From the NCBI RefSeq assembly GCF_003334405.1, contig NZ_QOWM01000039.1: a DNA stretch of 2,077 nucleotides. One strand, 5' to 3'. Both the position numbers and the translations under genes were made by a program. Each line of letters opens with the position of its first letter. Within the stretch, counting starts at the first letter, position 1. This document shows, piece after piece, positions 1,310-1,825 of this stretch. The notes beneath the pieces are model-generated. The model did no database searches. It was not told the DNA's origin and was given only the letters and a program-made list of their open reading frames with translations. The stretch is from Escherichia coli. Lineage in GTDB: Bacteria; Pseudomonadota; Gammaproteobacteria; Enterobacterales; Enterobacteriaceae.

Positions 1310-1825
1310 ATGAATATCCAGGAAGCATTAAACGTTTTTGGATTATCCGGCGAATTAACTGAAAAAGATATCAAAGCAGCATACAGAAAAGCCGCTTTAA
1401 AATATCATCCAGATCGTAACCCGTTAGGGGCTGAACTGATGAAAGCGGTAAATGCAGCTTTTGATGTATTAATGGCAAATATTGATAAAATAAATCAGTT
1501 CCAGAGCACCGATGAACATGCACGATATAATTACGGTGATGACCTGGAAAAAGTATTAAACGTTCTTTCTGGTTTATCTGGTCTGGTATTTGAAGTGATA
1601 GGTAACTGGGTCTGGATTAGTGGAGAAACCATTACACATAAGGAAACTTTAAAAGAAATCGGGTGTAAATGGGCGGCAAAGAAAAAACAATGGTTTTATC
1701 GTCCAGACGAACATAAAAGTTACTGGAATCGTGAAGAACACACGATAGAAGAAATCCGCGCAAAATACGGTACAACCGGACAGCGCAGGGCGACAGGGTG
1801 GCAACGCGTGGAAACCAGAGCGTAA
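1310..1825 (+). CDS. J-domain (DnaJ-like co-chaperone domain) protein, 171 aa, with an unassigned C-terminal region
   Basis: ATG at 1310 preceded by SD aggag (1296-1300) with 9-nt spacing. The N-terminal 60-70 aa have J-domain hallmarks: DIKAAYRKAALKYHPDRNP with the invariant HPD tripeptide (codons at 1406-1414), followed by a helix III-like AELMKAVNAAFDVL. The C-terminal ~100 aa (Trp-rich, GNWVWISGETITHKE...KQWFYRPDEHKSYWNREEH) lacks the Gly/Phe linker and zinc-finger of true DnaJ. TAA stop at 1823-1825. Confidence 0.85.
   Translation: MNIQEALNVFGLSGELTEKDIKAAYRKAALKYHPDRNPLGAELMKAVNAAFDVLMANIDKINQFQSTDEHARYNYGDDLEKVLNVLSGLSGLVFEVIGNWVWISGETITHKETLKEIGCKWAAKKKQWFYRPDEHKSYWNREEHTIEEIRAKYGTTGQRRATGWQRVETRA

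Follow-up and report, generated by a model that had tools for sequence, protein, structure and literature searches.

A plasmid-borne J-domain protein with an orphan C-terminal domain and its proposed role in the establishment of conjugative plasmids

Why should a conjugative plasmid encode a small J-domain protein of its own, and where would such a protein direct the chaperone of its host? The question is raised by a 2,077-nucleotide stretch of Escherichia coli DNA (contig NZ_QOWM01000039.1), hereafter termed the window, in which a single gene at 1310-1825 was proposed, in a preliminary description, to encode a stand-alone J-domain protein on a plasmid-like element. This element is indeed a conjugative resistance plasmid, the window being 99.7% identical to the E. 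coli plasmid pDETEC36 (NZ_CP116128). The answer favoured here, with moderate confidence and from sequence-based evidence, is that the gene encodes a class C J-domain protein which would be made early in the recipient cell and would tether DnaK to nucleic acid or nucleoprotein on the incoming DNA. The gene has already been annotated and counted as a marker of IncX backbones, being listed as the backbone or maintenance marker 'dnaJ' (PMC5868456, PMC4207749), and is therefore not a new sighting. What is new, relative to the literature that was searched, is the two-domain family to which its product belongs, the size of this family, its association with leading regions, and a regulatory cassette that it shares with other genes.

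The longest open reading frame (ORF) of the window, at 1310-1825 on the plus strand (stop codon included), runs from an ATG start to a TAA stop, encodes 171 amino acids and is preceded by an AGGAG ribosome-binding site (RBS) at 1296-1300, 9 nt 5' of the ATG. Its counterpart in pDETEC36 is annotated as a 'J domain-containing protein' (WP_001025395.1). Between plasmid lineages, nonsynonymous divergence (dN) amounts to 0.16-0.39 while synonymous divergence (dS) is saturated, and the closest pair shows a dN/dS of 0.05; the low dN in the face of a saturated dS indicates that the reading frame is under purifying selection and represents a real gene.

The presence of an N-terminal J domain was confirmed by profile search, with Pfam PF00226 (DnaJ) matching residues 9-56 at E = 4.3e-11, while the best PDB sequence matches of the protein are to isolated J domains only (2och, E = 5e-10). 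An AlphaFold2 model of the full protein, based on a 75-sequence alignment (predicted local distance difference test (pLDDT) of 87.7, predicted template modelling score (pTM) of 0.74), places the J domain at residues 3-63 (1316-1498), with helices I to IV at residues 3-10, 18-32, 40-56 and 58-63. The Hsp70-activating tripeptide HPD (H33, P34 and D35; 1406-1414), which is contained in the signature KYHPDRNP, is located between the second and third of these helices. The rest of the protein, as had been claimed, is unlike DnaJ, CbpA, DjlA or HscB. For example, the NCBIfam models of the former three score 19.7-40.6 bits against cut-offs of 162-403, with the J domain alone being aligned (TIGR02349, class A DnaJ: 40.6 bits versus 377.2, restricted to residues 9-57; CbpA: 19.7 versus 403; DjlA: 22.7 versus 162), while no NCBIfam model of HscB matched the protein. 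Furthermore, the protein contains a single Cys, and both a glycine/phenylalanine (G/F) region and a zinc finger are absent. It is a class C (type III) J-domain protein with a complete canonical J domain, including HPD, and because this domain is canonical, activation of host DnaK through HPD is the safest element of the functional prediction.

The J domain is followed by an acidic linker (residues 64-74; 1499-1531), with a pLDDT of 76-78 for residues 61-80 and an isoelectric point (pI) of 4.4 for residues 67-93, and by a basic, Trp-rich C-terminal domain (CTD) encompassing residues 75-160 (1532-1789). When modelled alone, the CTD is compact with a pLDDT of 87.5 (pTM values of 0.74-0.76 were obtained across the CTD and full-protein models), and its elements are predicted in the order helix, beta-hairpin EVIGNWVWISG, helix, beta-hairpin CKWAAKKKQWFY, long loop, helix and strand. 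The earlier remark that the C-terminus is rich in Trp is accurate, since residues 94-171 include six Trp (7.7%), and this segment has a pI of 9.4. The basic character extends to the family, whose CTDs exhibit a median pI of 9.7 and a pI above 9 in 95% of cases. W102, K125 and W128 are invariant across the family, while E95, G98, W100, G105, T107, K115, I149, R150 and G154 are conserved in at least 90% of its members. Remote-homology and structure searches with the CTD returned no Pfam family, PDB match or annotated AFDB fold, and the domain thus remains unrecognised, as the preliminary description had stated. Similarly, a hidden Markov model (HMM) search of the other proteins of the plasmids, topoisomerase included, revealed no further copy of the CTD.

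A lead, rather than a case of membership, is provided by DUF5710 (PF18974), which appears to share with the CTD a helix and a subsequent beta-hairpin with the pattern 'K..LK.LG..[WF]....K.W[YF]'; the CTD, however, is twice as long and possesses an extra N-terminal helix and hairpin as well as a C-terminal helix and strand. The protein of the window does not itself match DUF5710, whereas weak matches were observed for CTD members, one of 63 at E <= 0.001 and 14 of 63 at E <= 0.1. An hhalign comparison of the CTD with a verified DUF5710 alignment, for which the PF18974 segment was taken from a Rep_3-DUF5710 initiator of an Acinetobacter plasmid, gave a probability of 2.4% over 25 columns of the helix-hairpin segment, which is not significant.

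The CTD is sometimes joined to N-termini other than a J domain, as in three metagenomic proteins, namely P0150, where it is preceded by an IrrE/M78 peptidase-like region, and P0135 and P0250, where it is preceded by long unrelated regions (that of P0135 shows a weak DUF2786 match, while the match of this protein to DUF5710 has E = 0.058). Because it is fused to such differing N-termini, the CTD appears to behave as an independent targeting module. Beyond the CTD the protein ends in a flexible, Arg-rich tail (residues 161-171; 1790-1822; pLDDT 56-70) with the terminal sequence GWQRVETRA. A final Ala is present in 60 of 145 family representatives (41%), compared to an Ala content of 6.5% in the last 25 residues, and position -3 is occupied by Leu or Ile in 52 of the 145, typical endings being RKIA, KRLTA and KKIAA. 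This pattern is one that we take to resemble C-terminal degrons, and the tail could act either as a degron for proteases or as a signal for secretion.

Proteins that combine the two domains are widespread, and nearly all of them are encoded on mobile elements. A profile of the CTD alone retrieved 2,093 representatives of 50%-identity clusters at E <= 0.001, and 939 at E <= 1e-10. The best 148 of these matches are mostly proteins of 150-185 amino acids with the CTD at the C-terminus; some are stand-alone CTDs, and where 55 or more residues precede the CTD, HPD is retained in 94 of 106. Using tblastn, the CTD was detected in 2,570 PLSDB plasmids of Escherichia, Klebsiella, Acinetobacter, Enterococcus and other hosts, 84% of which are predicted to be conjugative. 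Complete genomes of E. coli carry the gene in 468 of 5,426 cases (8.6%), with 504 of 506 copies being plasmid-borne, and homologues are thus not confined to chromosomes. The two-domain protein is also represented in PHROG 15863, in a few phage genomes and in gut metagenomic contigs that resemble mobile elements.

The gene lies between the replication origin and the presumed origin of transfer, on the side of the plasmid expected to be first into a new host. Plasmid pDETEC36 (30.9 kb) possesses an IncX-type backbone with a MOBP relaxase, an MPF_T transfer system and TaxB/TaxC. Its gene order starts with rep (on the minus strand), a non-coding origin region of ~1.7 kb, the J gene, an ORF of 180 codons, two small ORFs and a helix-turn-helix (HTH)-like ORF, continues with a second copy of a GC-rich element (see below), two small ORFs, hicA, hicB and ~350 bp rich in inverted repeats, and ends with a TaxA-like ORF, the TaxC relaxase gene and the pilX/virB operon. 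All genes from the J gene through hicB lie on one strand and point toward the presumed origin of transfer (oriT), which corresponds to the arrangement described for leading regions, where genes are oriented such that the transferred strand serves as the template (PMC11541004). The presumed oriT is located at ~30480-30835 of pDETEC36 (the L001/L002 junction), between hicB and the TaxA-like ORF, and contains inverted repeats such as CAATCCGATGTCAAATGGTACCATTCGATATCGGATTG; the TaxA-like ORF is absent from the PLSDB listing, probably because it is situated near or across the start of the record.

Among six contexts in which a relaxase was in view, the gene was located opposite the relaxase operon relative to oriT, and pointing toward oriT, in five. 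This position and orientation are retained in the IncX plasmid pDETEC36, in IncI2, in an Acinetobacter MOBF/MPF_F backbone, in an Enterobacter MOBF backbone and in an IncX-like Proteus backbone, in all five of which the J gene precedes the relaxase operon on the same strand. A further plasmid that departs from this arrangement is a non-mobilisable deletion derivative. The CTD is encountered alongside unrelated replicons and MOBP, MOBF and MOBC relaxases, from Proteobacteria to Firmicutes. As to whether homologues sit in leading regions next to ssb, psiB or ardA, the gene is on the leading side in IncX, IncI2 and the two MOBF backbones, and the Enterococcus faecalis homologue adjoins ssb, together with an AcrIIA9-family gene, DpnD/PcfM, a toxin-antitoxin pair and a thermonuclease gene. 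None of ssb, psiB and ardA is annotated in the IncX plasmid.

Based on these findings, the J gene would be among the first to be expressed once the transferred strand enters the recipient. Its J domain would dock on host DnaK and trigger ATP hydrolysis, while the CTD would anchor the protein to a target shared by all hosts, the likeliest being a nucleic acid or nucleoprotein complex on the incoming DNA. Candidate targets include single-stranded DNA (ssDNA) coated with SSB, a primer or junction structure, or the machinery for priming, replication restart or transcription assembled there. DnaK delivered locally in this manner would remodel or disassemble the complex and thereby speed establishment, and the flexible tail with its final Ala may restrict the lifetime of the protein or act as a signal. 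Host DnaJ works likewise at ori-lambda, and in SV40 T-antigen a J domain is found beside the origin-binding domain. Since the CTD takes the place of the domains with which DnaJ binds its clients, it should determine the specificity of the protein, and its conservation across unrelated replicons, relaxases and phyla suggests that the target is universal rather than plasmid-specific, as Rep or the relaxase would be. It is this conservation, together with the uniformly basic and aromatic-rich character of the CTD and the leading-region position of the gene, that favours tethering of DnaK to the incoming DNA; the identity of the CTD ligand is much less certain than the proposal as a whole. A location in the early-entering part of the plasmid makes it probable that the gene aids establishment in the new host. 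A precedent is the phage J-domain protein Rki, which acts via DnaK early in infection (PMC3486835).

The J gene is preceded by a unit of ~415 bp (895-1309), of which a second copy with 89% identity is present in the same plasmid, while an IncI2 plasmid contains two full copies and one internally deleted copy. The copies are located at 895-1309 of the window, at L001:17970-18385 and at L003:7049-7472, L003:7944-8202 and L003:10000-10423, and each of them ends at the ATG of a different leading-region gene. This cassette is composed of a GC-rich structured non-coding module of ~280 nt (895-1177, without an assigned strand), a variable spacer, a promoter-like site, a hairpin in the presumed 5' untranslated region (UTR), and an invariant AGGAG-N9-ATG, the AGGAG RBS being identical in all four copies that were aligned. 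Indels in the GC-rich module are not multiples of three, its copies are positioned ~110 bp 5' of a start codon, and when searched for alone, it was located 2,554 times across 1,121 plasmids, 94% of which are conjugative. As ssDNA the module folds far better than shuffled controls (z = -3.5 to -4.6). The promoter-like sequence TTGCAA-17-TATTAT (1219-1247, plus strand) emerged from a consensus scan and is retained in the IncX and IncI2 copies; its spacer is filled by a palindrome (1224-1245), the pairing of which is maintained between IncX and IncI2 through two compensatory changes. Such sites are no more numerous in the sequence than in shuffled sequence, and for this reason the proposed promoter function is deduced from conservation alone. 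The UTR hairpin GGGG-AATGG-CCCC (1258-1276, plus strand), supported by consensus folds, shows a one-sided G-C to G-U change between copies. A scan of the whole window against Rfam at E <= 1 returned only a chance match to a plastid intron.

The cassette may represent a second kind of leading-region promoter, priming or control element beside Frpo. Like the Frpo/ssi elements of F and ColIb-P9, it is a repeated, structured non-coding element of ~300 nt located 5' of several leading-region genes that are co-oriented toward oriT. It differs from these in being predicted to fold as several local hairpins or as a domain of 210 nt rather than as the Frpo hairpin, and in having its -35/-10 sequences downstream of the GC-rich module without visible pairing to it. 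Of note, a 106-amino-acid 'molecular chaperone DnaJ' annotated in pDETEC36 (WP_224693477.1; 28488-28808, equivalent to L001:17936-18256) was rejected as a second J protein, as it corresponds to a spurious ORF across the second cassette copy and lacks a J domain. The 'two dnaJ genes' reported for IncI2 plasmids (PMC12750680) probably stem from this misannotation.

Several observations weigh against the proposal that DnaK is tethered to the incoming DNA by an early-expressed plasmid protein. The leading-side location is inferred from gene order, and in an IS1216-rearranged Enterococcus plasmid the gene is found downstream of the relaxase gene. A blastn comparison of window 700-1320 with ten Frpo/ssi elements (five known and five candidates, from the supplement of Samuel et al.) returned nothing below E = 0.89, so that homology of the cassette to these elements was rejected, and both strands of the cassette fold comparably when G-T wobble pairs are considered in what are effectively two lineages. 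Given the lack of similarity to Frpo/ssi and the comparable folding of the two strands, expression of the J gene from ssDNA is a conjecture. Furthermore, the IncX literature refers to the function of 'dnaJ' as unknown (PMC4207749), and the family is not highlighted among the leading-region families of Samuel et al. (2024), in whose supplement, as far as it was searched, only a five-member 'DnaJ' family was found and whose main text does not mention J domains.

A bolder formulation, which we regard as doubtful, would view the proteins combining J domain and CTD as a hitherto unrecognised, phylum-spanning class of Hsp70 hijackers of conjugative elements that are made from the incoming single strand via the repeated cassette, acting as an ssDNA promoter or priming element distinct from Frpo. 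The CTD would then bind ssDNA, a junction or SSB-coated DNA, and would load DnaK in order to refold the relaxase, unfolded by translocation, or to remodel a priming or restart complex.

The plasmid protein may be compared to a small number of known systems. Rki (ORF 057w of the T4-like phage RB43) is the only characterised J-domain protein of a bacterial mobile element (PMC3486835), and is likewise a class C protein encoded by an invading element, with an N-terminal J domain containing HPD, a short linker and an orphan C-terminal domain; action at an early stage via host DnaK is a feature of Rki itself. The C-terminal domains of the two proteins are unrelated, however, and tblastn matches of the plasmid protein in T4-like phages of Klebsiella and Aeromonas cover query residues 1-54 only. 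Moreover, Rki comprises 237 amino acids and is restricted to a few T4-like phages, whereas the plasmid family encompasses ~2,000 clusters at 50% identity, mainly on conjugative plasmids. With DnaJ, CbpA and DjlA the plasmid protein shares a homologous J domain and the same KYHPDRNP signature, from which stimulation of the DnaK ATPase is expected, while it is devoid of the G/F region, the zinc finger, the substrate-binding domains of DnaJ and CbpA, and the transmembrane segment of DjlA. The large T antigen of SV40 and polyomavirus resembles it in the proposed logic, according to which a replicon-encoded J domain is tethered by a nucleic-acid-binding module so as to bring Hsp70 to the replicon's own DNA; homology between the two nevertheless stops at the J domain, the CTD is a DNA-binding module by proposal only, and the comparison extends to another domain of life. 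A 2026 review of J-domain proteins mentions phage members and does not mention plasmid members.

Alternative explanations were considered in the light of the same data. The protein could be a co-chaperone of the plasmid's own initiator, bringing DnaK to the adjacent pi-like Rep, whose inactive dimers would thereby be converted to active monomers in time for the initial replication rounds. In IncX the J gene is the first gene across the origin region from rep, and Rep_3 initiators of Acinetobacter plasmids carry at their C-terminus a DUF5710 domain (PF18974 confirmed), to which the CTD bears a weak resemblance, although this link is not significant. Moreover, activation by DnaK/DnaJ/GrpE is well established for iteron initiators, among them R6K pi, P1 RepA and F RepE. 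A domain specific for an initiator should diverge along with that initiator, yet the same CTD is encountered in IncI2, two MOBF backbones and Enterococcus, where the replicons are unrelated and the gene is not beside rep. Because of this conservation across unrelated replicons, a role as Rep co-chaperone was downgraded as the main explanation, and it is considered unlikely. Alternatively, the plasmid protein could work as Rki does and manipulate DnaK globally, competing with DnaJ and locking or titrating DnaK such that proteobacterial sigma-32 is stabilised and heat-shock proteins are induced, or such that proteostasis is otherwise rewired to the benefit of the incoming element. Stabilisation of sigma-32 is the mechanism of Rki, and is for the plasmid protein solely a rival proposal. 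The two proteins are similar in size and layout, and Rki is expressed early and binds DnaK through HPD, with both of its domains being required (PMC3486835). However, no similarity to the C-terminal domain of Rki was detected, the T4-like phage matches being limited to the J domain segment noted above, and the strong basic character of the CTD would be left unexplained. The family also occurs in Firmicutes, where heat-shock control is not known to run through DnaK and sigma-32, and a Rki-like mode of action therefore seems improbable.

The leading-region context also bears on the possibility that the protein is an anti-defence or anti-SOS factor, which would use DnaK to unfold or inactivate a host defence or stress protein acting on incoming ssDNA. 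Leading regions are enriched in anti-defence genes of the same orientation (PMC11541004), the Enterococcus homologue is part of an island that includes ssb and the AcrIIA9-family gene, and the IncX plasmid has no annotated ardA, psiB or ssb of its own. The J protein, on the other hand, has no PADLOC match, no known anti-defence protein uses a J domain, and conservation across phyla would need an equally universal defence target, which makes this role quite improbable. The tail, finally, might mark the protein as a type IV secretion substrate, or as a short-lived donor protein, acting on the relaxosome before or during transfer. Its flexibility and Arg content, and an extreme C-terminus that is conserved in character (the frequent final Ala and the Leu or Ile at -3), would be consistent with this, and F-type systems are reported to translocate leading-region proteins (PMC8406263). 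A protease degron would fit the tail pattern equally well, however, and the family is also present in phage and non-conjugative elements, so that a function in the donor is judged very improbable. Overall, the interpretation given in the preliminary description was upheld wherever it was testable and is thus partly supported; its proposals of DnaK recruitment to a client, of titration, of early expression and of an anti-defence role are matters that we infer.

Downstream of the J gene, two hairpins (1832-1850 and 1864-1898, without an assigned strand) were identified in the interval (1832-1898) that separates it from the gene of a 180-amino-acid protein, which starts at 1930 on the plus strand, reaches the end of the window at 2077 and continues to L001:17472. 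In IncX, IncI2, pEC86, Proteus and MOBF-Enterobacter plasmids this ORF comes directly after the J gene, which is not the case in the Acinetobacter or Enterococcus plasmids. Its product has no PHROG or NCBIfam match, and PADLOC matches were obtained only above E = 0.01. The J protein and this product may work as partners, or the latter may be a client of the former. When the J protein and five downstream genes were searched against PADLOC, PHROGs and NCBIfam, nothing informative was obtained except for an HTH-like protein of 75 amino acids.

The origin region between rep and the J gene contains features of its own. A 60-nt segment at 258-317 of the window (CTTCCGCTTCCTCGCTCAC...GCGGCGAGCGG), within the IncX origin region, matches more than 5,000 plasmids at 90-97% identity, 70% of them being small mobilisable ColE1-like replicons, and is one that we take to be the primosome assembly (n') site of pBR322/ColE1. 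Two sets of short direct repeats were observed in this region, CCATAAAT[CT]TGTCCC at 1-16 and 167-182, and ACCGAG.A..TTCTCATGTTT at 502-522 and 626-646, and both may represent iterons or other sites for the pi-like initiator. Window positions 1-227 are common to only a handful of plasmids.

The J gene is part of the backbone of IncX and IncI2 plasmids, and the matching records include 33-kb and 60-kb plasmid types, which are described in the literature as mcr-1 carriers, as well as plasmids of IncX3 size. The gene is not covered in current reviews of either J-domain proteins or leading regions. If DnaK is indeed delivered to incoming DNA by its product, a chaperone step would be added to the establishment phase of conjugation, a function would be assigned to an orphan CTD family of ~2,000 clusters, and an H33Q allele or a deletion of the CTD would provide a genetic handle on the Hsp70 dependence of plasmid spread. 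Should the doubtful, broader proposal of phylum-spanning Hsp70 hijackers also prove correct, chaperone recruitment would constitute a defined and druggable step in the establishment of the IncX3, IncX4 and IncI2 plasmids that carry NDM or mcr-1.

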